59,878 bases of DNA, from the NCBI GenBank assembly GCA_038127095.1, contig JAYPGZ010000005.1, forward strand, positions 1 through 59,878, in the 5' to 3' direction. Made by a program: the position numbers and the translations under genes. The stretch is from Candidatus Roizmanbacteria bacterium (GTDB lineage Bacteria > Patescibacteriota > Microgenomatia > UBA1406 > HO2-37-13b). Position 1 is the first letter of the stretch, and every line of letters starts with the position of its first letter. Under the pieces are notes generated by a model. It ran no database searches, was not told the DNA's origin, and saw nothing but the letters and a program-made list of their open reading frames with translations. Of this stretch, positions 29,887-54,160 are shown piece after piece.

Positions 29887-30198
29887 ATGTATACTAGAAC
29901 TATGTTTATTGGACCATTTTATTTTGACTCAAAAGAGCTGTTTTTGCTGTTTGCGGCGGCTATACTCTTCGTGGCCCGTTTTGTAGGGTGGGCGCCCGTG
30001 TGGTTTGATGCTGACAAGCTGTTAACGCTCCTGTTGCTCATTATAATAGTGAAAGGGCTTGTGCCGGGCGTGCATAACCAGGCGTTTTTTGTGGTGTCCG
30101 TCGTGGCGCTCATTGCGACGTTATATCTGTCGCTGCCACAGGTGTTACTGTTCTACTTATTTACATTCTTATTCTTGAAGATCTTTCGAGTTATTTAA
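29887..30198 (+). CDS. Small polytopic membrane protein of atypical (higher) GC
   Basis: Track ORF 29848..30198. Its 5' end is built from REP-like elements, so an internal ATG (29887 or 29902) is more likely. Line 29941-30000 has 35/60 G+C. Confidence 0.5.
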   Translation: MYTRTMFIGPFYFDSKELFLLFAAAILFVARFVGWAPVWFDADKLLTLLLLIIIVKGLVPGVHNQAFFVVSVVALIATLYLSLPQVLLFYLFTFLFLKIFRVI

Positions 30199-41444: not shown

Positions 41445-41473
41445 TCGATCCTTCGGCTACGCTTCAGGATGAT
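41445..41473 (-). repeat. REP-like element that supplies the last codons and the stop of CDS 41457..44339
   Basis: tcgatccttcggctacgcttcaggatgat. The minus strand reads ..INHPEA*. Confidence 0.6.
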
Positions 41474-44339
41474 TAATAACTTTCGCTACTATTATACTAA
41501 TTCCCAGTAATCCAATGGCGCCAAAACCTATGTATTCCAACAGTTGTGGCCAGAAAAATACGCGGATAGCCCCTTTTGTACCAGCTGGAACGACCCATCC
41601 GTTTGACCAATTATTTACCTTAACATGATGTTTCAGTTCTTGGCCGTTGATGTATGCTTTCCAACCACTATTGTACGCCTGGTTATATACGATTGTTTCC
41701 TGCTTGCCGACAGATAAGACCTGACTTTCAAAAGGTAAATTGTGGCTATTTGTAGGTTGCCCTTGTGTGCCTGCAGGAGCAAAATAGAGAGCTTTTAATT
41801 GTTCAAGCGGCATACGGTATACCTGCAAGCTAATAAGCGCATTTTCAGACGCAAGACCTTCGTACGAATCATTCTGGAAACCGAATACATATCCTCTACT
41901 GTATCGATTCCCTGTGGGCAGAATATAGTATGCAACGTCTTCACTCAGGCGATCTTCAATTATTGTGCTGCCTGTTGTTTCACTTTGTGCGTAGAAGAAT
42001 AAACGCTGGCCACGAATATTTTCATTTTTAATTCTCACGATGTATGCTTGATCATGGGTAATGTCGGGTAGGGAATAGGTAATACATACGGTGAACTTTT
42101 GACACTGAACAGGCGTTGCCTTAGTGGTATCGATAGAAACATAAGAATGTTTTTGAAAAGAAACGGTTAATGCGCGCTCTTGCATAGTTCCTTGCAGCAA
42201 TGAAGTATCGGCATTTGAAAATAATGAATAGTTTTCATCGGTAAACGGCAATTGTGTAGTGAGAGAAAATGTATTAGCATTTTCTGTAAGTTTCCACGTT
42301 GGCGGAGTGAGTTTTTTTTGGGAAAATACGTCGATAAATGGGAAATAATAGTCAAATCTCTCTTTTTCTAAAGGAAGCGGGCTTCGGTAATGACCAACTA
42401 TTGCGTATGCGGTATCGTCGTTAGTAATGACGCTTTGTGAACCAACTACCGGTATGCTTGTAAGCTGGGTTACAAATGGAACGGCGTTTTTGACTTTGTA
42501 AATTGAAATGGCGCCGAATGTTTTCTCATGTTGTATAAACTCATTGGTAGCCAAAAGCTCCTGCACTTTATTGGCTAAAAAAGCCTTTTGGTGGGTAGAC
42601 TGTGCTAGTACACTCTTATCAATAAGAACGTAATGAATATTGTATTTCTTAAGTACCGCTGCTACCTTTGAGGCTTCTCCTAAAGCTAAAGCATGCTTCA
42701 TTTCCCATAAATAGCTTTCAGAATGTGTGCTCCATACATCAAAAGTAGGCGAAACTATTGGCTGTTCAATACCATACCATAGAAATCCGGATCCAGCGTA
42801 TCCCCACGAATAGTGATACCATCCCCAAAATGAATCTTGGGGCAACAGGGCAATGCGATTGTCTTTAGGAACCGTGCGAAAATATTCAATAGTTTGGAAA
42901 TAGTCGGCAGGAATTTTCACGCGAACGTGTTGTGAGAATAAATTTCCGGTGAAAACAGGGAAGGAGACGATGGCTATTAGTATCAAAGAGATTATTGTTA
43001 AGAGTATGGATCCTACTGATTGTTGCGCTTTGTCATCCTGAGAGAGCAAAGCGACCGAAGGATCTCCGTGTGAGTATTTAACACCTAGATTCTTCACTAC
43101 GTTCAGAATGACGGCAAGTCCCTGCATAAAAAAGTAGCTTGAAACGAGTGCCCAAGGAACCGCAAATTTGGTAAAGGGAGCACGGAACATTTGAGCAATG
43201 AAGCTATTTCGGGAAATAAGCTCGTTCAACTGTGAAAATATAGGCGTATTTGAAAGTAATGCAACAGCACAGAGCAACCAGATTCCAACGAATGGAGCTC
43301 TGTACGTACTCTTACGTGTGATTCCGAGAAGAATTATGGCGAACACACTCCATGAAGCGATCTGGACGACTGGATTTTCCAGGTGCTTGTGCCACGGTTC
43401 AAAGAGCGGTTTTTGATCAGTTCCTTTTAAGTCATAATAAAACCCTTTAAACGTAGCAAATGATGACATGTTTCCACGAGCTTTATTTTGAAGTTGAACA
43501 TCTTGTGTGGCGAGCTGATTGATTTTGGCATTTTCCACTGTTTGCGATCCCCCTTGTGCTAAGAAATACACTTGTGGAAGTATCCAGAAAAGGTTGGCGA
43601 TGATGATGAGGAAAAATGCAACGATGAGTTTTTTGAGCCGATTCACGCGCGGTGCTTTTTCAGATCTGCTGAAAAGGTGCCATGCTCCAATCACTCCCAA
43701 AACCAACATGTACACGACAAACAGTGTTTGCACGTAAAAACTTGGTGTCGCAAGTACATTGATTAGAAAAAGGAGTACTATGTCATTTCGACCCAGAGCG
43801 TAGCGGCGGGGAGAAATCTCGGATACAGTGCGCAAAAATATCCAAATCAACCAGGGAAGGGAAGCGAAAAAGATTGAGAATGGCTCAAAGGGAAGGAAAA
43901 AAAGCTGAACGGTGGCGAAGTTTAAGATGTAGAAGAGGGATCCTATGAAGGGAAGTTGAGACCCTTCGCTCTGCTCAGGGTGACTCGATTTGCGCTCCTG
44001 ACCAAGCAACTTAAACATTCCCAATCCTCCAACAGCCAGCATTCCAATATGAACAACATGTCGAATAAGACTCTGTGGCATTATAAGCGATATCGCCCAT
44101 ACTCCTACCGCTCGTAGCAAATCGCTTGCGTGCGCCATGCCGCCCACAAGTCCAAAACTCTGATATTCTTGCCATACCGCAAACACTGCTCTTTTTACTG
44201 CTAAAGTCGGAGCAAGTTCTGTCTGTAAGTTATCCCAGCCGGTCAAATACGTTCCAAAACGGTAATTTACCAGTCCAATAATGGCTACTACAAGGATAAG
44301 AGTAATATGGTTGCCAAAACGCGAAAGTAACGACTTCAT
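41457..44339 (-). CDS. Large polytopic membrane protein (960 aa), possibly a GT-C-type glycosyltransferase (YfhO/AftD-like), carrying in-frame REP-like insertions
   Basis: More than 10 hydrophobic segments in the N-terminal half, a large soluble C-terminal domain and a terminal TM segment. The function call is weak. Confidence 0.55.
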   Translation of the reverse strand: MKSLLSRFGNHITLILVVAIIGLVNYRFGTYLTGWDNLQTELAPTLAVKRAVFAVWQEYQSFGLVGGMAHASDLLRAVGVWAISLIMPQSLIRHVVHIGMLAVGGLGMFKLLGQERKSSHPEQSEGSQLPFIGSLFYILNFATVQLFFLPFEPFSIFFASLPWLIWIFLRTVSEISPRRYALGRNDIVLLFLINVLATPSFYVQTLFVVYMLVLGVIGAWHLFSRSEKAPRVNRLKKLIVAFFLIIIANLFWILPQVYFLAQGGSQTVENAKINQLATQDVQLQNKARGNMSSFATFKGFYYDLKGTDQKPLFEPWHKHLENPVVQIASWSVFAIILLGITRKSTYRAPFVGIWLLCAVALLSNTPIFSQLNELISRNSFIAQMFRAPFTKFAVPWALVSSYFFMQGLAVILNVVKNLGVKYSHGDPSVALLSQDDKAQQSVGSILLTIISLILIAIVSFPVFTGNLFSQHVRVKIPADYFQTIEYFRTVPKDNRIALLPQDSFWGWYHYSWGYAGSGFLWYGIEQPIVSPTFDVWSTHSESYLWEMKHALALGEASKVAAVLKKYNIHYVLIDKSVLAQSTHQKAFLANKVQELLATNEFIQHEKTFGAISIYKVKNAVPFVTQLTSIPVVGSQSVITNDDTAYAIVGHYRSPLPLEKERFDYYFPFIDVFSQKKLTPPTWKLTENANTFSLTTQLPFTDENYSLFSNADTSLLQGTMQERALTVSFQKHSYVSIDTTKATPVQCQKFTVCITYSLPDITHDQAYIVRIKNENIRGQRLFFYAQSETTGSTIIEDRLSEDVAYYILPTGNRYSRGYVFGFQNDSYEGLASENALISLQVYRMPLEQLKALYFAPAGTQGQPTNSHNLPFESQVLSVGKQETIVYNQAYNSGWKAYINGQELKHHVKVNNWSNGWVVPAGTKGAIRVFFWPQLLEYIGFGAIGLLGISIIVAKVINHPEA
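43033..43067 (+). repeat. REP-like element inside CDS 41457..44339
   Basis: gtcatcctgagagagcaaagcgaccgaaggatctc, read in frame as HGDPSVALLSQDDK. Confidence 0.7.
43086..43112 (-). repeat. REP-like element inside CDS 41457..44339
   Basis: tagattcttcactacgttcagaatgac, read in frame as VILNVVKNL. Confidence 0.65.
43782..43820 (+). repeat. REP-like element inside CDS 41457..44339
   Basis: gtcatttcgacccagagcgtagcggcggggagaaatctc, read in frame as EISPRRYALGRNDI. Confidence 0.7.
43958..43984 (-). repeat. REP-like element inside CDS 41457..44339
   Basis: gagacccttcgctctgctcagggtgac, read in frame as HPEQSEGSQ. Confidence 0.65.
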
Positions 44340-44341
44340 GG

Positions 44342-45649
44342 TTATTTGCGCGCAAACAAAACTTTAAACAGGGGAATTAAGTCAGAAGGAGTACTTGACA
44401 TCAGGTGGAGGTATTTTTTTGCAACACTACTAATATGTCGTTCTTTTGCAAGCGATGCTGAAAATTCAACAAATTGGTCATATTTAGACTGAACTATATC
44501 GAGCTTTTTCATAAAATCTCGGTGGTCTAAATCAAACATTACATCGGTAAATTTAAGATCGCTTTTTTGCAAAGCCAAACGCATATCATCATTTTGGAAA
44601 TATGCATGTAAATGTGAAGAAAATAAAACGGGTTTTTGGTGGGATAATGCATGCGCAAGCGGGCCCGAAGATGACATGAGAACACGATATGGAAACACAA
44701 CCACATCGCTTGCAGCAAAATAACGATTGATGAGTTTTTCAGGTATAAAATCGGTATGCACAATATTGGCACTGTTTTCTGCACGTTGTATAGTTTGGGA
44801 ATAATATTTTTTGTAGTAAGCCTTATCTTTTAATGTGGCACTTGCTCCTCCGGCGAGTAATAGCTTTATATTGGTATTTTTTTGTCGATCAACTGTTTTT
44901 ACAATCCAGTCAGATCCTTTATACCAGTTCACAAAGCCAAAACTCATAATTACAAAGTCGCGTTTTGCAATATTAAGTGCCTTGCGTGCGTTATTTTTTG
45001 TAAGTGGTCTGCTAGAAACTACCGCCAAAGGAACAACATTAATTTTGGAAGCGGGAATAGAGGTACTTAATTCATGCAGTAACTGTGATTCAAATACCAA
45101 TATATTTTGACTCAAGAATCCAACTGCAGTATAAAAAGCATGAAGACCCATTGAAAGTATGCGTAGAAGTAGACTATTTTTAATATTTATATGATGAGAA
45201 ATACGTGAAACATCGTTTACTACCTGATGAAATTCAAAAGTAATCGACTTTCCCAGAAGACGTAAAAATGAAAGCAATACAGGAATTCCGATGACTGGGC
45301 TTAGTCCGCCGAACACGTTAAATTCAAATTGAAACAACATTTGGTGAACTTGATCAAAGCGAAGAGCAGCTTTGGCAATGTGAAATAATGCAGTTATTGA
45401 TCCTTTTTTCCACACACGAAGCACGATTATATTTTTCCCATCGCGGGTGACTGAAGAATCGATTGATGTATTTCCTGTTTTTTCGGCAAGCACCACAATG
45501 CGTTTGCCTTGTTTGGCAAGTTCGCGTAGCAAGCGTTTACTATGCCAGGCAACTGCGGTTCGATCGGCAATGTTGTTTCCACGTGAAGGATAGCTGGTGA
45601 CTACCAGCATAGAATCAGGGCGATTAAATTTGTTTAATAATGTTTTCAT
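44342..45649 (-). CDS. GT-B fold glycosyltransferase (family 1/4-like)
   Basis: FIPEKLINRYFAASDVVVFPYRVLMSSSGPLAHALSHQKPVLFS. ATG 45649 (MKTLLNKF) was chosen because the track's 60-aa extension reads through a REP-like element (LRFLAYARNDG). Confidence 0.7.
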   Translation of the reverse strand: MKTLLNKFNRPDSMLVVTSYPSRGNNIADRTAVAWHSKRLLRELAKQGKRIVVLAEKTGNTSIDSSVTRDGKNIIVLRVWKKGSITALFHIAKAALRFDQVHQMLFQFEFNVFGGLSPVIGIPVLLSFLRLLGKSITFEFHQVVNDVSRISHHINIKNSLLLRILSMGLHAFYTAVGFLSQNILVFESQLLHELSTSIPASKINVVPLAVVSSRPLTKNNARKALNIAKRDFVIMSFGFVNWYKGSDWIVKTVDRQKNTNIKLLLAGGASATLKDKAYYKKYYSQTIQRAENSANIVHTDFIPEKLINRYFAASDVVVFPYRVLMSSSGPLAHALSHQKPVLFSSHLHAYFQNDDMRLALQKSDLKFTDVMFDLDHRDFMKKLDIVQSKYDQFVEFSASLAKERHISSVAKKYLHLMSSTPSDLIPLFKVLFARK

Positions 45650-45658
45650 ATATTCACC

Positions 45659-45686
45659 GTCATTCCGAGCATAAGCGAGGAATCTC
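45659..45686 (+). repeat. REP-like element
   Basis: gtcattccgagcataagcgaggaatctc. Confidence 0.7.
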
Positions 45687-45845
45687 AGTGACGTGCCTTT
45701 AAATACAATCTTGCGATTATCGTTAAAGGTACGACCCGAAGAGGAAACAAAATGACTGTGCAAGCACAGATCAAGCTGCTCCTCTTCGGGCCAATTGGGT
45801 TTTTGGGTTACTAACTCCTTTCTTCTCACTTAGTGAGAATCATGG

Positions 45846-47930
45846 TCAGTTGAGACCGGGGCAGGCAGGGTAGTTTGCCTTTTCGCCATCGGTGATGACG
45901 AGATGATCTCCATGACCATCATATCCATACAGCCAACACGGGTTGTTTCTGTCGCCTGCATCCCAGTCGAAAGTGCCATTCCTGGCCTCATCGACTTTGC
46001 AGGTCTTGCAGACAACCAGCTGGTCGCTGTTAAAGGATCCGTCCTGCCAGGTCGGCTGGGCGGGTGGTGGCGGTGGTGCTTCCACAACGGGGTCGCCGTT
46101 AGGCACGACCTCGTATTGGGGCTCCGGAGTGGGCGGTACTGCGGTGGCAACTACGATCAGTTGCCTCGGGGTGGCCTTCGGAACAAACCGACGGTTAATC
46201 GTTCCCTTGGGAACGAAGCGACGGTTGATCTGGCCGCTGCTGAGCGGGACTGGAAGTCCTCCGCAACTGGTCGGCCTTGGGAAACCCAAAGCGTCCATAA
46301 CCCAACCGGGCATGCCACGCGTTCTAAACCATCCTTCGCAGAACAGTCGGTTAGCCTCGCTTACGCGATTCTCGTTCCAGACTGTTAAGCCGAATGTACC
46401 ACCGATACGGGTGAGGAAGCCCCACAGATCGCCTCCGAGTGAGACAAACTGATGCGGGTCTCCAATGAAACCTTCTACCAGACAGTTTCCCATATGGAAT
46501 GGGTTTGCCGGCAAAAAGCCTTCCTTGTAGTGCCAGGCGTGAGTATGATCAAGCTGCATGACCTTTTCCCATCGGGAAGCAGAACCACCAAAGGTGATTT
46601 CGGCGTCGCGCTGAGTTTGGGGCCAATTTGCCAAACATACCGTAGGCACGTTTGTCGGTTCCGGCGTTTCCGTCGGAATGAGTGTCGGTTCGTCGGTCGG
46701 GACGCTGGTGGGCGTCTTGGTCGGCGTACGACTTGGACGAGGTGTCCAGGTCGGTTCCGGCGTTGGCGTACAAGTCGGTTCCGGCGTCGGTGATGGACAC
46801 TCAATGATCCTGCACCAGATCGGCGGTTTTGTCGTAGCCGTCGGACTCGGAGTCGGCGTGCACAAGCCTGGGAATGCCTCGCACGGGTCGCCAATTGGCG
46901 GTTTCGGTGTAGTCGTCGGTGTTTCCGGACACTCGCCATTCGGTCCCGGGTAGGGACAGCTTGGCTTGTCCGTTGCCTTCGGCGTGTTCGTCGGTGGATT
47001 CACAGGCGTGTTCGTCGGCGTCAAGGTTGACGTCGAGGTCGTGGTGGCCGAAGCTGTGGCTGTCGTCGGGCTGCTAGTGACCGTCGGGCTAGGCGTAACT
47101 GTCGGGCTTGGCGTCCACGTAGGCGTGTTGGTCGGTGTAGCCGTAGGCGCGGTTGGGCTTGGCCCAGTCGTGCTTGTGGCTGTCGTTGTCGGCGTCCGGG
47201 TGGGCGTCGAGGTCGTGGTGGCCGAAGCCGTGGCTGTCTGCGTGTTCGTTGGTTGCGTCGTCGCAGTCGGCGGATTTGTGGCCGTCCTCGTCGTGGTCGC
47301 GTTGGGCGTGACCGTTGCCGGGGGGCATTCAACCCAAAGTACTTGGTAGACCTTAGTCCCGTCCGAGCAATACGCCAAGTGACCTACCAGCCAACACTCA
47401 GTCTCTGGCGGAGGCGCCTGGACACCGTACTGTGTGCAATGTGCCACACAGTTCGTGCCATTCACCTTAACCGTAAAGGTTGCTGGGTTGGTCCTCGTGA
47501 CCTGGTTGTCGTCATTCGTTTGTCGAACAACTTCAACCTGCTTCGCGCCAGGCAACCTTCCGCCCGAAAGCTCGATGAGCTTTTGGAGCGAATTCGCCAA
47601 GGCGGTCTGGGTGATGGCACTTGCTGCCATGAACTCACCCATCTGACGATCGAACTCTTGAAGCTTTTGGAGCTCCTCGTTCGTTTCGACTTGGGCCTCC
47701 GTCAGCGGGGCGACCATATCGCTGAATTCCTTGCGGATTTCAGTAAGGTCGTTAGGTGAGACCAGCTCGGTCTCGGGGTTAGGTGCGCTTGTCGGCGTTG
47801 CCGTGGGTGCCTCTGCAGCAAGCGTTAGCCCAGGCTGGGACATGTACGCGTTGATGCGGTCAAGCGTGTTACAGCTGGTGGTGCTGAGTGCCACGAGGCA
47901 CAACAGCATCGACAGGATTCGGCTTTTCAT
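45846..47930 (-). CDS. High-GC island 1: putative lipoprotein (694 aa) with very long Thr/Pro linkers and Cys-rich segments
   Basis: ATG 47930 preceded by AGGAG. MKSRILSMLLCLVALSTTSC is lipobox-like. Long TPTxTP tracts and the tandem GQINRRFVPKGTINRRFVPKAT. The track start 48065 reads the upstream gene's poly-Thr tail in another frame. Confidence 0.65.
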   Translation of the reverse strand: MKSRILSMLLCLVALSTTSCNTLDRINAYMSQPGLTLAAEAPTATPTSAPNPETELVSPNDLTEIRKEFSDMVAPLTEAQVETNEELQKLQEFDRQMGEFMAASAITQTALANSLQKLIELSGGRLPGAKQVEVVRQTNDDNQVTRTNPATFTVKVNGTNCVAHCTQYGVQAPPPETECWLVGHLAYCSDGTKVYQVLWVECPPATVTPNATTTRTATNPPTATTQPTNTQTATASATTTSTPTRTPTTTATSTTGPSPTAPTATPTNTPTWTPSPTVTPSPTVTSSPTTATASATTTSTSTLTPTNTPVNPPTNTPKATDKPSCPYPGPNGECPETPTTTPKPPIGDPCEAFPGLCTPTPSPTATTKPPIWCRIIECPSPTPEPTCTPTPEPTWTPRPSRTPTKTPTSVPTDEPTLIPTETPEPTNVPTVCLANWPQTQRDAEITFGGSASRWEKVMQLDHTHAWHYKEGFLPANPFHMGNCLVEGFIGDPHQFVSLGGDLWGFLTRIGGTFGLTVWNENRVSEANRLFCEGWFRTRGMPGWVMDALGFPRPTSCGGLPVPLSSGQINRRFVPKGTINRRFVPKATPRQLIVVATAVPPTPEPQYEVVPNGDPVVEAPPPPPAQPTWQDGSFNSDQLVVCKTCKVDEARNGTFDWDAGDRNNPCWLYGYDGHGDHLVITDGEKANYPACPGLN

Positions 47931-47952
47931 GATCGGCACTCCTAGTAACTCG

Positions 47953-48294
47953 TCAGGGCGTGGTTGTCGTGGTCGTCGTGGTCGGTGCGGTCGGCGTGGT
48001 TGTCGTGGTCGGTGCGGTCGGCGAGGTCGGAACCGGGGTCGGCGTTGCCGATGGTTCGAACCCATCGATGATCTTGTCGACGATCATTTTGATCACCTTG
48101 TAGGCAACCAAACTGACCAGGATGAAGACGACCTCGATGACGGCCCAGGCGAGCAGCATAGCCCACCAGTAGTCCTGCAGGCCGAACATCTTGACGGAGA
48201 CGATCACTCCGACAGTTCCGAGGATCACTCCGCCGAACACAGCGGGGATCAAGATCGCCAGCATGAACACGTGTGCGATGGTCTTCTTGGACAT
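47953..48294 (-). CDS. High-GC island 1: small polytopic membrane protein with a poly-Thr/Pro tail
   Basis: AGGAGG lies 6 nt before the ATG at 48294. Two to three TM segments, with a tail ending TTTTTPTAPTTTTTTTTP. Confidence 0.6.
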   Translation of the reverse strand: MSKKTIAHVFMLAILIPAVFGGVILGTVGVIVSVKMFGLQDYWWAMLLAWAVIEVVFILVSLVAYKVIKMIVDKIIDGFEPSATPTPVPTSPTAPTTTTTPTAPTTTTTTTTP

Positions 48295-48323
48295 GATCTG
48301 CCTCCTAGGGCATGGTGCGCTTT

Positions 48324-48572
48324 TCAGCGCTGCGGGGTTGCCTGAGCTTCAGCCGTCATGAATACCCATGTCGCCGTTTGAATAGGCGTCGGGGTCATGG
48401 TTGGCGTCGGGGTTGAGGTGGCCGTTGCCGTCGGCGTGGTTGAGTTGATCAGACTTATCCAATATTTGCCGAAGAAGATGAATGCGGCGATGAAGACTAC
48501 CGCGAGCAGGAAGTCGAGTGTCCTGTGGATCCTTTCCAGCTGTCGAAAGACCTCGTCGAGTTCGCTTGACAT
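48324..48572 (-). CDS. High-GC island 1: single-pass membrane protein with a Thr/Pro tail
   Basis: AAGGAGG lies 5 nt before the ATG at 48572. MSSELDEVFRQLERIHRTLDFLLAVVFIAAFIFFGKYW..TTPTATATSTPTPT. Confidence 0.55.
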   Translation of the reverse strand: MSSELDEVFRQLERIHRTLDFLLAVVFIAAFIFFGKYWISLINSTTPTATATSTPTPTMTPTPIQTATWVFMTAEAQATPQR

Positions 48573-48615
48573 CTTTGCCTCCTTAAGGCAACTAGCGCCA
48601 AGGGCGCGCGGAAGT

Positions 48616-48816
48616 TTACTTGAGAACGAAGCCAAAGGCGTCCATGAATGCCCATACGGCTATCATGGTGCCAATTAACCCGCACGTGAAGGAGCACGCA
48701 AAAAAAGCGAGCATGCGCCGTGGTGTCCGTGGCTCTGGGGCAAGCACCCATGTGCCGAGCGCCGTGAACCACAATAGGAATGTAATTCCATTGACCCACT
48801 GAAGCTGTAATTCCAC
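48616..48816 (-). CDS. High-GC island 1: 66-aa two-TM membrane protein
   Basis: GGAGG lies 4 nt before the GTG at 48816. VELQLQWVNGITFLLWFTALGTWVLAP...CGLIGTMIAVWAFMDAFGFVLK. The longer track ORF (start 49050) is less likely. Confidence 0.45.
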   Translation of the reverse strand: MELQLQWVNGITFLLWFTALGTWVLAPEPRTPRRMLAFFACSFTCGLIGTMIAVWAFMDAFGFVLK

Positions 48817-49121
48817 TCTACCTCCTACAGTTCCTTTTGTACAGCAAGCGCTGACTGGTTCGGTGGTCAACAAAACTGCCTGCAGTATGGACATTGTCAA
48901 GACGACAATTCCGGTGCAGCAGTGATAACTGGCATCAATTAAGTGCCAGGTTGTTTTCCTGCAGAGACTGAAAAGTCTCTGTCCGGCTGTCCGCCATTTT
49001 CCTCCTTTCTGCCTTTTTGAAAATGGGGAACCAGAGAATTCAAGATTCATTATTCATAAATCCTCAGATTCCCCATTTTCACTCTTAATATAGTTAATTT
49101 AGTAACCTTTTCCATAACGCC

Positions 49122-49155
49122 GAGATCCTTCGCCCCAAAAGGGACTCAGGATGAC
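49122..49155 (-). repeat. REP-like element
   Basis: gagatccttcgccccaaaagggactcaggatgac. Confidence 0.7.
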
Positions 49156-49401
49156 AACTGTTATGGAAGTAAACCCAATTGTAAAAGTGCTTATTTGGAA
49201 ACTATGAGTAGAAAATAAATCTCTACCATCTTTCCCAAAAAATCCAACATTTTACCTTACGTCAGCCGGATGCAAAACCCGGCCTTTTGGGGTAGAAAAT
49301 GTAACCTATAGTTTATCAAATTTTAGGCCTAATGTCAAATTTCACCCTGCGGGTTCAAATGCTACTTTTCATTCAAAATTTCTGTGCTACAATACCCCTA
49401 T

Positions 49402-50601
49402 ATGTTTACACCAAATCAAAAAATGCTTTCAAATTACGCGCATGTGTTAACTGACTTTGCCTTGGGCAGTGGGGAGGGAATTAAGAAAGGTGAAGTTATT
49501 TTTGTGCAATTTGATTCTCCAGCTTTGCCACTCGCACAGGAAGTGTATCGGGCAATTCTTCAAAAAGGCGCACACCCCATGGTCAAAATGAACGAAGATA
49601 GCTTTAGTAAGATTTTTTACGATGAAGCCAGCGATGATCAATTGGAATTTTTCCCCAAAAAATATCAAAAATCGCTTATAGAAACCATGGATCACCGCAT
49701 GTATTTAATGGCTGATCGTGATCCGCTATACCTAAAAGACGTTGACCCCGCAAAAATGATGAAGGCTAACAAGAGTCGAAAAACGCTTAAAAAGTGGCTT
49801 GATCAAAAAGAAGATGCCGGCAAACTAACCTGGACGCTGTGTTTATACGGTACGCCAGGCATGGCAAAGCAGGCTGGGCTATCATTGCAGGAATATTGGG
49901 AACAGATTGCAGCCGCATGCTTTTTAGAAGAAAAGAATCCCATAGCAAAGTGGCAATCGGTGTTCAAACAAGTTGAACAAACTATGCAGAAATTGAACTC
50001 ACTGCCAATAGATAAGCTTCATGTAGTTGCTAACAAAACCGACTTATGGATTAGTATGGGTGAAAAACGTAAATTCATAGGGGGTTCTGGTAGAAACATC
50101 CCAAGTTTTGAAATTTTTACGTCGCCCGACTGGCGAGGCACAAATGGGCATGTATATTTCGATTTCCCATTGTATCGATATGGGAATATTATTAAAGATA
50201 TTCACCTTGAATTCCGCAATGGCCGGGTTGTCTCTGCACGGGCTGGAAAGAACGAAAACCTTATAAAAGAGCTTATTAAGCAGAAAAATGCCGATAAAAT
50301 GGGTGAATATTCGCTTACCGACCGCAGATTTAGCAAAATTTCCAAATTTATGGCTAATACGCTGTTTGATGAAAATTATGGTGGCGAGTTTGGAAATACC
50401 CATTTGGCTTTGGGATCATCATATCATGATACCTACACCGGTAATGCAAAAAAGCTCAAAGACGCCGATTGGGCAAAACTGGGGTATAACTCAAGCGCAG
50501 AACACACCGATATTATTGCAAAACAAGATCGAATGGTAACTGCCGTCATGCGTGATGGAAGTGAAAAGGTAATCTATAAGGGCGGAGAGTTTAAGGTTTG
50601 A
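49402..50601 (+). CDS. Aminopeptidase, M29 (AmpS/PepS) family
   Basis: About 400 aa. FTSPDW, GEFGNTHLALGSSY and SAEHTDII. ATG 49402 lies 8 nt after a TACAAT box (49388-49393). The track's GTG start 49384 would sit inside the promoter. Confidence 0.75.
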   Translation: MFTPNQKMLSNYAHVLTDFALGSGEGIKKGEVIFVQFDSPALPLAQEVYRAILQKGAHPMVKMNEDSFSKIFYDEASDDQLEFFPKKYQKSLIETMDHRMYLMADRDPLYLKDVDPAKMMKANKSRKTLKKWLDQKEDAGKLTWTLCLYGTPGMAKQAGLSLQEYWEQIAAACFLEEKNPIAKWQSVFKQVEQTMQKLNSLPIDKLHVVANKTDLWISMGEKRKFIGGSGRNIPSFEIFTSPDWRGTNGHVYFDFPLYRYGNIIKDIHLEFRNGRVVSARAGKNENLIKELIKQKNADKMGEYSLTDRRFSKISKFMANTLFDENYGGEFGNTHLALGSSYHDTYTGNAKKLKDADWAKLGYNSSAEHTDIIAKQDRMVTAVMRDGSEKVIYKGGEFKV

Positions 50602-52776: not shown

Positions 52777-52817
52777 GTATTGATTATATATCAGAGTGAA
52801 TGGGAGATGGAGAGATT

Positions 52818-53063: not shown

Positions 53064-53101
53064 GATAAGCTTTCGAGCTTATCTAGAGTCCTTAGGAGGA
53101 C
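53064..53101 (+). promoter_or_regulatory. UUCG-tetraloop hairpin plus conserved TAGAGTCCTTAGGAGGAC (SD) motif, copy 1
   Basis: GATAAGCT-TTCG-AGCTTATC is followed immediately by the conserved tract. The ATG is at 53105. Confidence 0.5.
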
Positions 53102-53104
53102 GTG

Positions 53105-53233
53105 ATGCTTGTGGGGAGATTGAGTTCTGCCGACGTATTGTTGCTAGTAATGGCAACCAATACCTTGTTGATCTGGACATGTCTAGCCGAATTGCTTCGT
53201 CGCAACCTGGTTGCGCAAAGGAGTCGGAGATGA
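53105..53233 (+). CDS. High-GC island 2: 42-aa hydrophobic peptide (not in the track)
   Basis: Hand-translated MLVGRLSSADVLLLVMATNTLLIWTCLAELLRRNLVAQRSRR. Strong SD, and the stop overlaps the next ATG as ATGA. Confidence 0.4.
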   Translation: MLVGRLSSADVLLLVMATNTLLIWTCLAELLRRNLVAQRSRR

Positions 53234-53382
53234 TTGTCCCGAGGATTTTTGGAAGTCTTGCGATTCTGATTGGCTTGTTCAATCTGCCACCGGCGATTGT
53301 TCATGGCAACAGGATCGAAGTAGTGGCAAGCATCTTCTTGATGATCTTCGGATCGTTTATCGTAGCGATCTTCAAGAAGTAG
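53230..53382 (+). CDS. High-GC island 2: 50-aa two-TM membrane protein
   Basis: MIVPRIFGSLAILIGLFNLPPAIVHGNRIEVVASIFLMIFGSFIVAIFKK, with GGAG upstream. Confidence 0.5.
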   Translation: MIVPRIFGSLAILIGLFNLPPAIVHGNRIEVVASIFLMIFGSFIVAIFKK

Positions 53383-53402
53383 TTCTTCATCCACCATCCG
53401 CA

Positions 53403-53437
53403 GTAGACATTCGTGTCTACTAGAGTCCTTGGAGGAC
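53403..53437 (+). promoter_or_regulatory. UUCG-tetraloop hairpin plus conserved TAGAGTCCTTGGAGGAC (SD) motif, copy 2
   Basis: GTAGACA-TTCG-TGTCTAC, then the same tract as copy 1. The GTG is at 53441. Confidence 0.5.
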
Positions 53438-53440
53438 CAA

Positions 53441-53665
53441 GTGAAAATCGTCCTGATGATCGTCGAGTGGATCGTTTGGTTCCTCTTCTTCGTGGAGTGG
53501 CTGATCCTCATGGAGAAGCTTGGGGTGGCTGGGAAATCGACGGCAATGCATTTGGCCGTGGCATGGTTATTTGCCACGATCATGATGCTGCGGCACATCT
53601 TTAAGAAAGCTCCCGGAGTTATAGACAGGGTGTTAGCCCGTCTTGTACGGAAAAAGGAGGACTGA
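53441..53665 (+). CDS. High-GC island 2: 74-aa two-TM membrane protein
   Basis: VKIVLMIVEWIVWFLFFVEWLILMEKLG..HLAVAWLFATIMMLRHIF. GGAGG lies 5 nt upstream of the GTG. Confidence 0.5.
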   Translation: MKIVLMIVEWIVWFLFFVEWLILMEKLGVAGKSTAMHLAVAWLFATIMMLRHIFKKAPGVIDRVLARLVRKKED

Positions 53666-53729
53666 GTCACTCATCTTTTTTTACCTGCCGCCGAACTCCC
53701 CCTGGAGTTCTAACAGAAAGAAGATCGCC

Positions 53730-54083
53730 GTGCTTCGAGGACTAGTCGTAAACTTGACGCTTATTCTGAGTGTCGTCGCTATGTGGTTGGTCTTTGATCA
53801 GCCCAACGTGGCGTTCGCACAGAACCCGACCCCAGCCGTTTCGTCAAGCCGTACCTTCATCGGTCCGGCTCCGTCCAGCTTGGACACCAAAGAACCTGTC
53901 GGCAACTCGTCGATGCCTGCGACTGAGCAGCGTGCAAAAGTGACCCCATGGTCATTCGTCTGGCGATTCGCCACAACAGGGATCTTGCTAGGAGTGCCGA
54001 TTCTTCTCGCTATACTCCTTAGCCGGAGCTATACAAAGCCGAAGCGGCGCAAGCGAGGAGAGTCACGGAGGTTCAAGGGCTAG
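53730..54083 (+). CDS. High-GC island 2: secreted protein with a signal peptide and a C-terminal TM segment plus Arg/Lys tail
   Basis: GTG 53730. LRGLVVNLTLILSVVAMWLVFDQPNVAFAQ ... ATTGILLGVPILLAILLSRSYTKPKRRKRGE. Confidence 0.5.
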   Translation: MLRGLVVNLTLILSVVAMWLVFDQPNVAFAQNPTPAVSSSRTFIGPAPSSLDTKEPVGNSSMPATEQRAKVTPWSFVWRFATTGILLGVPILLAILLSRSYTKPKRRKRGESRRFKG

Positions 54084-54090
54084 GCTGGGG

Positions 54091-54160
54091 GGGGCGGGTG
54101 ACCGTTTCGTAGTTGCACAGCTTTGTGCATACGGTCATTCGCCCCTTCGCGTTCTTTTTT
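54091..54160 (+). terminator. Long GC-rich hairpin (15-bp outer stem plus inner TGCACA/TGTGCA stem) followed by a T6 tract
   Basis: 54091-54105 pairs with 54131-54145, including two G-U pairs. TTTTTT at 54155-54160 lies 9 nt after the stem. Confidence 0.55.

Follow-up and report, generated by a model that had tools for sequence, protein, structure and literature searches.

Why should a segment of markedly raised G+C content, coding for four apparent envelope proteins, lie within the AT-rich genome of a member of the Patescibacteria? We address this question for a stretch of 59,878 nucleotides from Candidatus Roizmanbacteria bacterium (GenBank assembly GCA_038127095.1, contig JAYPGZ010000005.1, positions 1 to 59,878), referred to below as the window, in which the segment occupies positions 45840-49000 (island 1). 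An earlier note, made from the letters of this DNA alone, had described the segment as foreign in composition and had offered two causes for it: horizontal acquisition from a high-GC organism or a chimeric assembly. The description stands; of the two causes, the chimera is excluded and the acquisition finds no support in the form proposed. Comparison with related sequences indicates that this is probably a replacement-type hypervariable surface locus, with GC-rich cassettes fixed in position across a Patescibacteria clade whose nearest named relative carries the label Candidatus Paceibacterota.

The compositional deviation is large and affects every class of site. Island 1 (3.16 kb) has 57.8% G+C, against a mean of 41.5% for other windows of 3.16 kb (standard deviation 1.6, maximum 44.9; z = 10), which bears out the jump previously placed at the island edges; the hand counts behind it, 37/60 for 46981-47040 and 25/60 for 45001-45060, were exact on recount. 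G+C at third codon positions (GC3) is 0.63-0.69 in the open reading frames (ORFs) of the island versus 0.24-0.40 in flanking ORFs, and lies at 0.59-0.69 in each segment of the gene for a 694-amino-acid (694-aa) protein, whether linker or globular. Since synonymous sites are shifted too, the high G+C is not merely a consequence of Thr/Pro/Ala-rich protein content. Codon preference is reversed in all codon families (shares in island versus native genes: AAG 0.78 vs 0.28; GAC 0.68 vs 0.32; CTC+CTG 0.58 vs 0.17), the outcome of a codon-usage comparison that the earlier note had proposed. Spacers within island 1 and a second island (53080-54100) reach 0.53 G+C over 442 nt, compared with 0.39 for native intergenic DNA, and the ORF list contains the many long spurious frames that had been noticed in other frames of the island. 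GC3, codon usage, spacer DNA and translation-initiation signals are all foreign, as had been claimed, and island 1 thus displays the host-unlike composition and codon usage by which genomic islands are classically recognised.

An abrupt change of composition at both edges is also what would be seen if the contig of a high-GC organism had been joined to a Patescibacteria contig during assembly. Independent run assemblies speak directly to this: X1 and X3 are activated-sludge runs (study P1) and X2 is an estuary run from a different study. The island's 113-aa protein occurs exactly in contigs of four separate run assemblies, all 100% identical to the window, and two of these contigs extend from within the gene for the 694-aa, lipoprotein-like protein into the M29 peptidase gene beyond the right edge. 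Single contigs of X1 cover 44912-46589 and 47050-49527 and one of X3 covers 47621-49571, so that both composition borders are crossed, while X2 contributes one contig over the left border (45588-47591) and another reaching from the right flank down to 48882. Island depth equals flank depth in each case (6.6-6.8x in X1, about 7-11x in X2, and likewise in X3). The continuity and coverage that the earlier note had wanted inspected at 45830 and 49050 are therefore as expected of genuine sequence, and the same architecture is found in five other independently assembled relatives. These spanning contigs exclude a chimera; we put its probability at next to nothing.

The relatives were found with the flanking M29 peptidase and a VirD4-like ATPase as queries, and come from independent assemblies (L-numbers below). 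The order of M29 peptidase and leader, operon, glycosyltransferase and 960-aa gene is shared by seven loci. All syntenic relatives, representing at least six related lineages, carry at the same site a GC-rich gene whose product is homologous, mosaic and anchored in the membrane, among neighbouring genes with a GC3 of 0.2-0.48. It had been suggested that related genomes be searched for an empty site between the glycosyltransferase and the M29 peptidase; there is none among L005, L006, L008, L009, L010 and L011, each of which holds a GC-rich homologue. Homologues of native composition at this locus had likewise been named as evidence against a foreign island: homologues are indeed in that position, but they are equally GC-rich. 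More distant relatives (L012/L037, L014, L017, L020 and L038; VirD4 65-72% identical) have unrelated secreted or lipoprotein genes of elevated GC3 in equivalent positions, for example 0.76-0.83 against neighbours at 0.22-0.35 in L012, and 0.47 against 0.14-0.17 in L038, a 31%-GC genome. Islands of different lineages resemble one another in codon usage (r = 0.6-0.8), which is anticorrelated with that of native genes.

This distribution bears on the other proposed cause, a recent acquisition by this genome from a high-GC donor outside the Patescibacteria, be it an actinobacterium, a member of the Chloroflexi or the host. The foreign codon usage, spacer composition and Shine-Dalgarno sites are what such a transfer would leave, and Thr/Pro linkers are common in high-GC Gram-positive bacteria. 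Against it stand the GC-rich homologues that occupy the locus in every syntenic relative, some with as little as 31% protein identity. In addition, a profile of the C-terminal domain of the 694-aa protein, searched against 1.84 billion representatives (one per 50% cluster of ~15 billion proteins), retrieved only P0001, P0004, P0005 and P0006, all from this locus, and no donor is visible for that reason; for the N-domain, a word-based search, a weaker kind of evidence, found no match. No island homologue was found by a scan of viral contigs, by tblastn against phages or in PHROGs. The homology check meant to place a donor thus leads back to the locus itself.

Signs of mobility are similarly lacking. 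In agreement with the earlier note, scans of the window ORFs with Pfam, NCBIfam and PHROGs revealed no integrase, transposase or reverse transcriptase, and there are no flanking direct repeats around island 1. The sole tRNA call in the island, a 95-nt ARAGORN tRNA-Arg(GCG) at 47980-48074 (+), lies antisense to the poly-Thr codons of the 113-aa gene and is probably a false positive because Rfam gives it no support. (A tRNA-Leu call at 14621-14705 (-) is likewise not reported by the Rfam scan.) Island 1 therefore resembles a classical horizontally acquired island in its atypical composition and codon usage, its sharp borders and its orphan genes, but differs in having no integrase, tRNA target, direct repeats, empty site or identifiable donor. 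We consider recent acquisition very unlikely. Judged by these comparisons the island is not a recent event in this genome, and since every syntenic relative has a GC-rich homologue and the domain searches gave no matches outside, any foreign origin must be ancient or recurrent within a clade-specific gene pool.

The occupant of this fixed site is a mosaic. Between the window and L008, the flanking M29, VirD4 and 960-aa genes have a synonymous divergence (dS) of 1.0-1.3 and a proportion of synonymous differences (pS) of 0.56-0.62, which is saturated, whereas the core tract at 46266-46715 is 90-99% identical (dS 0.08); in the N-domain and the C-terminal tail, third-position identity is random-like. 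Between the window and L005, 90/90 nt are identical within the Cys block (46911-47000), with an M29 pS of 0.66. Overall, modules are near-identical between species (dS 0.08-0.15) compared with a dS > 1 for flanking genes. Such young tracts inside saturated flanks indicate that modules moved between species long after the species had split. Most differences between close alleles stem from such tracts, and the outgroups are saturated.

Within a single population the site appears to be polymorphic. In the X7/X8 runs the right flank assembles as one contig at ~47x, the end of the 960-aa gene has 51x and the GT1-family glycosyltransferase gene 37.5x (flanks 37-51x). A lipoprotein gene like that of the window has 11x; a second, which has only short conserved segments in common with it, has 27x; and a third cassette, an L005-like GT2 enzyme and lipoprotein, has ~10x. 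The GT2 piece is 99.3% identical to L005, and the L005-like flank is absent. From these depths, one population would seem to contain three or more cassettes on one flank background. The cassette depths and the GT1/GT2 swap therefore place the replaceable unit between ~44340 (the end of the 960-aa gene) and ~49010 (the leader), with the native-composition glycosyltransferase included. A fixed position, divergent cassettes in one population (on depth evidence) and recombination tracts younger than their surroundings are the features that characterise a surface locus of the replacement type.

Hypervariability can also be programmed within a clone, by gene conversion from silent cassettes as in vls or by a diversity-generating retroelement, and a GC-rich surface lipoprotein gene in an AT-rich genome would suit the former. 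Neither silent copies nor a template/variable repeat pair was found within the 60 kb, however, the only repeats being those of Thr/Pro codons; there is no reverse transcriptase among the window ORFs and there are no G-quadruplex-type runs in island 1. The change actually observed is replacement of alleles and modules between lineages, and programmed variation is accordingly an extremely improbable account.

The products of the island are predicted to be located at the surface, on the basis of a signal peptide, transmembrane (TM) segments, Cys-rich modules, Thr/Pro linkers and glycosyltransferase neighbours, which upholds the envelope role first proposed for them. In the 694-aa protein, a signal peptide with a hydrophobic core (...LVALSTTSC) leads to Cys20, with a non-canonical residue at position -3 of the lipobox ([LVI][ASTVI][GAS]C). 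The relatives L011 (LTGC) and L038 (LSGC) have canonical lipoboxes, and L005 has an N-terminal TM anchor instead. A helical plus small beta N-domain (aa 21-205) and a Thr/Pro linker are followed by a Cys block (aa 304-361; 46848-47021), a second linker, the core domain (aa 431-563; 46242-46640), a tandem basic INRRFVPK repeat (aa 568-585; 46176-46229), the conserved QYEVVPNGDPVVEAPPPP (46062-46118) and a variable Cys-containing C-terminus. Beyond the signal peptide and the anchoring Cys20 the protein has 20 Cys, and its earlier description as lipoprotein-like, rich in Thr/Pro and Cys blocks and bearing the INRRFVPK repeat, was accurate. The readings of the smaller proteins fared less evenly: a simple hydropathy scan gave two TM segments for the 113-aa protein and one clear segment, rather than the two reported, for the 66-aa protein, while the 82-aa protein is single-pass, as stated, with a TPTATATSTPTPT stretch that is not its end, since 26 more residues follow. 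Comparison of the island proteins with Pfam, NCBIfam, PHROGs, PADLOC and PDB sequences yielded only weak matches to Thr-rich tails, and across lineages the small membrane proteins show no homology outside their Thr/Pro tails. A full-length homology search with the 694-aa protein was swamped by Thr/Pro words and contained one true match; exact-protein look-ups of the 694-aa and M29 proteins found none.

The island is further set apart by the signals at its gene starts. All four genes have AGGAG or AGGAGG at proper spacing, as do, in island 2, the 50-aa and 74-aa genes and the 42-codon ORF preceding them. The four minus-strand genes were correctly called in the earlier note, and the 4-6 nt it gave for the distance of the Shine-Dalgarno site holds for the three small ones (4, 5 and 6 nt), the lipoprotein gene having 8 nt. 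By motif count, Shine-Dalgarno sites precede 7/8 island genes vs 1/27 native genes (Fisher p = 9e-6). No such motif is present in 25 of the 27 native genes, at least half of which have a TAnAAT-like box ending 5-10 nt before ATG; this suggests that native genes are largely leaderless (for instance those starting at 14729, 49402, 50617(-), 54697(-) and 57251(-)). L005, L008, L011 and L012 show the same split. Two ORFs elsewhere in the window may be recorded here: a Thr/Pro/Val-rich ORF at 15931-16896 (+), of native composition (GC3 0.31), is the only non-island ORF with a well-placed AGGAGG at its own start, and a small hydrophobic ORF at 29904-30198 (+) has a GC3 of 0.56 but a leaderless-type start (TATACT box), which puts it outside the island class.

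Upstream of the operon, a promoter-like site reading towards the island matches 10/12 consensus positions and is kept in the window, L005, L006 and L008. The leader that follows is ~95% identical in four species outside an insertion resembling a repetitive extragenic palindromic (REP) element, although flanking synonymous sites are saturated. Its consensus fold has 3 compensatory pairs, and a hairpin of 13 bp or more sits immediately before the first Shine-Dalgarno site. This hairpin corresponds to the inverted repeat that had been noted at the right edge as an 11-bp element; the repeat is present, one base off and longer, with 28-nt arms at 49018-49045 and 49054-49081. No short ORF in the leader is conserved among the four species (a doubtful 20-codon ORF downstream also lacks conservation in relatives), Rfam returned only chance-level matches and no family, and a profile search found nothing outside the four closest species. 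In a soil metatranscriptome, three contigs match the island (one at 100% identity) and no contig matches the flanks; the junction of leader and island is seen in a metatranscriptome contig (48850-49003). These contigs are suggestive, though not conclusive, of high island expression.

The opposite edge is structured as well. The palindrome reported there is exact, and forms part of a motif past the lipoprotein stop codon (hairpin, AAAGGAG, AGTAACC, AAACCC) common to the window, L008, L009, L011 and L005, in which the hairpin sequence is lineage-specific. The stems CCCGAAGAGGA/TCCTCTTCGGG and CCTTTAA/TTAAAGG of the following spacer are conserved in loci of GT1 type (the window, L008 and L009). 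REP-like elements (GTCATYCTGAG...GAAGRATCTC) do lie near both edges, at 45659 and 49145, as had been pointed out, with ~20 more in the window. Together with the leader, these conserved non-coding sequences frame the GC-rich segment and are thus candidate recombination anchors.

We can now propose how the locus may operate. A conserved strong promoter and a structured leader of ~300 nt would drive a Shine-Dalgarno-led operon for three small membrane proteins and one membrane-anchored protein, the latter displaying Cys-rich globular modules on Thr/Pro stalks away from the cell. The stalks would probably be O-glycosylated by the adjacent glycosyltransferase and a GT-C-like membrane protein. Operon and glycosyltransferase gene would evolve by swapping whole cassettes and internal modules through recombination between related lineages, for which the leader and, at the far end, the spacer with the 960-aa gene are possible anchors. 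Each population would keep several alleles, a pattern that diversifying selection on a phage receptor or on a determinant of host attachment should produce; what exerts the selection is our inference.

Several points weigh against this proposal. The coexistence of alleles on one background is derived from sums of contig depth, not from phased reads, and the RNA contigs are few, short and from relatives, and could reflect DNA carry-over. AlphaFold2 models of the C-domain (4 sequences, predicted local distance difference test score, pLDDT, 42) and the N-domain (2 sequences, pLDDT 46) are too low in confidence for use of the fold. The cassette is not compositionally uniform, because the co-replaced glycosyltransferase gene has native composition, and recombination alone does not explain why GC-richness should last in AT-rich lineages.

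Throughout the clade the cassette pool has the same stable attributes (high G+C, codons ending in G or C, strong Shine-Dalgarno sites), which are not marks of recent transfer, and the question becomes what maintains them. One answer is that GC-rich sister lineages within the clade are the home of the cassettes, which diversify there and are imported repeatedly into AT-rich lineages with no time to ameliorate. Genome G+C in the clade spans 31% to 55%, and one relative, L023 (VirD4 homologue 75% identical), has a GC3 of 0.78 in housekeeping genes and a codon usage that correlates with that of the islands (r = 0.65-0.77). The island spacer DNA is GC-rich, as imported DNA would be, and the inter-species tracts are young. 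The codon-usage correlation would nevertheless be similar with any GC-rich genome, the single intergenic start seen in L023 is leaderless rather than Shine-Dalgarno-led, and no lipoprotein homologue was recovered from a GC-rich background. Moreover, homologous integration would be hindered by the divergence of a GC-rich donor's flanks, and the exchange that is observed (the 99.3% GT2 piece) runs between AT-rich lineages. We view such import as possible without thinking it probable. L023 itself is a 2.1-kb metagenome contig with an overall G+C of 53%; L022, L026 and L038 have about 31%, and clade genome G+C is therefore very labile.

The alternative is maintenance in situ, in which a long-resident operon is kept GC-rich by an operon-specific fixation bias. 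This could be GC-biased gene conversion where recombination is concentrated, or selection for DNA or mRNA properties of a very highly expressed, Shine-Dalgarno-translated transcript. Consistent with this, GC3 holds at 0.6-0.8 even where protein identity has dropped to 30% and flank dS is above 1; the corresponding gene in a 31%-GC genome has a GC3 of only 0.47, which makes the elevation relative to background; the locus demonstrably recombines; and the strong promoter, long leader and RNA contigs suggest high expression. However, the ribosomal-protein genes in the window, with a GC3 of 0.25-0.34, show that strong expression is not by itself enough to raise GC3 here, and translational selection is an unlikely cause because spacers are GC-rich too and ribosomal-protein genes are not. 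The glycosyltransferase gene swapped with the operon is not GC-enriched, and we know of no biased-conversion effect of this size (+0.3 to +0.5 GC3) in bacteria. Maintenance of this kind strikes us as rather unlikely. The native composition of the co-replaced glycosyltransferase argues against the simple form of both import from GC-rich sisters and fixation bias.

A broader formulation of the replacement-type locus may be offered tentatively: that the clade keeps two expression dialects, one of AT-rich leaderless ordinary genes and one of GC-rich, Shine-Dalgarno-led, exchangeable surface cassettes, the latter forming a trans-species pool of surface determinants whose composition is actively maintained, through GC-biased conversion, through selection or through steady import from GC-rich sisters, and is no decaying trace of a single transfer. 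The GC-rich cassettes adjoin genes for a VirD4-like ATPase and glycosyltransferases, and the pooled cassettes may be determinants of host or phage specificity.

Comparable arrangements are known for other surface structures. The O-antigen rfb locus lies between galF and gnd, the pneumococcal cps locus between dexB and aliA, and both are polymorphic surface-antigen loci. Like them, the locus described here has a fixed position between conserved genes, mosaic tracts, a long conserved upstream leader, atypical composition in all alleles, and alternative cassettes with different glycosyltransferases in one population, its products being surface structures (here by prediction). Unlike them, its variable product is mainly protein and not polysaccharide, its deviation is +16 points G+C where the rfb and cps examples are AT-rich, its operon has its own translation-initiation signal, and its host belongs to the Patescibacteria. 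In Borrelia, the vlsE site holds a surface lipoprotein gene with a G+C content far above that of the AT-rich genome, a property kept between species despite sequence divergence. The GC-rich surface lipoprotein gene in an AT-rich genome is common to both cases, but vls converts from adjacent silent cassettes within a clone, and none were found in the 60-kb window. Surface or secreted proteins with O-glycosylated PT linkers occur in Gram-positive bacteria; these share with the 694-aa protein long Thr/Pro stretches between globular modules and glycosyltransferase genes alongside, and differ in that the globular modules here have no detectable relatives and glycosylation is only predicted.

Within the candidate phyla radiation (CPR), a hypervariable gene of Pro-Thr-Asp repeats has been described from the AT-rich genome of a Gracilibacterium (Sieber et al. 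2019 mBio, PMC6851277). It too is a single extreme hot spot of population variation encoding a Pro/Thr-rich extracellular protein, read as host-related, but what varies there is how many 9-nt repeats, and of which type, a single gene contains, and the parts of that report consulted mention no GC-rich Shine-Dalgarno-led operon, cassette replacement or cross-species locus (PMC6851277). Our survey of the literature found general reports of genomic islands in Patescibacteria and nothing on conserved GC-rich surface loci. What is unusual here is the persistent high G+C together with a separate style of translation initiation; otherwise this is a known sort of locus.

The implications are practical as well as evolutionary. 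Composition-based island finders would label the locus a recent foreign insertion or a mis-assembly, and neither holds; a GC anomaly in such genomes can mark a resident, clade-wide, hypervariable surface locus. The lifestyle of Patescibacteria is thought to depend on attachment to other cells. The surface protein that varies most is a leading candidate for recognising hosts or evading phages, and the conserved anchors of the locus define a target for this. An AT-rich leaderless core beside GC-rich Shine-Dalgarno-led cassettes is unusual, as is GC-richness that outlasts saturating divergence, and the locus bears on how composition is maintained, whether by amelioration, biased gene conversion or source-sink gene flow.

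Features of the locus, its homologues in relatives and its neighbours (window coordinates; homologues carry no window position)
Feature	Position	Strand	Remarks
Promoter-like site	49310..49338	(-)	TTGACA-17 nt-TAAACT, TG before -10 hexamer; reads towards island
Non-coding leader, ~300 nt	49010..49305	(-)	REP-like insertion ~49110-49160; long hairpin 49018-49081
Doubtful 20-codon leader ORF	48935..48997	(-)	MADSRTETFQSLQENNLALN; behind AAGGAGG; read from sequence
66-aa membrane protein	48616..48816	(-)	GTG start; AGGAGG 4 nt upstream
82-aa single-pass membrane protein	48324..48572	(-)	Thr/Pro-rich tail; AAGGAGG 5 nt upstream
113-aa membrane protein	47953..48294	(-)	two hydrophobic segments, poly-Thr/Pro tail; AGGAGG 6 nt upstream
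694-aa surface lipoprotein-like protein	45846..47930	(-)	signal peptide, 22 Cys, Thr/Pro linkers; AGGAG 8 nt before ATG
Hairpin	45823..45839	(-)	TTCTCAC-TAA-GTGAGAA; 7 nt after lipoprotein stop codon
Structured spacer, lipoprotein gene to glycosyltransferase gene	45652..45822	(-)	then REP-like element ~45659-45700
GT1-family glycosyltransferase	44342..45649	(-)	native composition; Pfam and NCBIfam matches
960-aa polytopic membrane protein	41457..44339	(-)	conserved left anchor; syntenic in L005, L008, L011, L017, L038
M29 aminopeptidase	49402..50601	(+)	conserved right neighbour; TACAAT ends 8 nt before ATG, apparently leaderless
Island 2	53080..54100	(+)	same compositional and translational class; Shine-Dalgarno-led small membrane-protein genes
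Island 2, 50-aa gene	53230-53382	(+)	
Island 2, 74-aa gene	53441-53665	(+)	
Island 2, 117-aa gene	53730-54083	(+)	
Homologue in L005			803 aa; island GC3 0.68
Homologue in L006			partial at contig end; G+C about 0.6
Homologue in L008 (P0001)			670 aa; island GC3 0.69
Homologue in L009 (P0005)			43% identical; island GC3 0.66
Homologue in L010/L011 (P0006)			31% identical; island GC3 0.65

The gene next to the island on the left, that of the GT1-family enzyme, belongs to the replaceable cassette, and its place is taken by a GT2 enzyme in L005 and in one allele of the P3 samples. The 960-aa protein beyond it has no Pfam or NCBIfam match. Its sequence weakly matches AftD, a mycobacterial arabinofuranosyltransferase (6W98/6WBX, E = 0.0025), and it is possibly a GT-C/AftD-like glycosyltransferase, which we offer as a lead only. 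The reading frame of the 960-aa protein contains REP-like elements at about 43032, 43102 and 43974. On the right, the M29 and VirD4-like genes are set further apart in the X7/X8 strains by 21 nt (CCTGCCTGCCGGCAGGCATGG) inserted after 50608, and in L008 alone a GIY-YIG nuclease gene (G+C 0.27; L008 6733-7014) lies between these two genes.

Island 2 is present in L005 and L008 and cleanly absent in L006, where window position 52797 joins 54290. A hairpin and the repeated CTAGAGTCCTT(A)GGAGGAC (53084, 53421) precede its 42-codon ORF and 74-aa gene, and there is a G-run, GGGCTAGGCTGGGGGGGGCGGG, at 54077. A 17-nt match between island 2 and the ribosome-binding region of the lipoprotein gene is, by rough estimate, within chance expectation and was set aside.

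Two further gene groups of the window may be mentioned. At 3081-12092 (+), a 2074-aa protein with RHS repeats is encoded ahead of a tandem pair of paralogous ORFs (9271-10716 and 10689-12092), the first of which matches the AvrPphF-ORF-2 domain; identical stretches occur in both paralogues, including GGGAGATGCGGGGAGGGGAATGGG at 10071 and 11468, and the RHS-repeat gene with its paralogue pair looks like a polymorphic-toxin arrangement. Finally, proteins with cohesin and dockerin domains are numerous in the region 17093-39806, where an M4 peptidase combines the two. Their genes are of native composition throughout, and the set indicates a surface assembly system of the cellulosome type.

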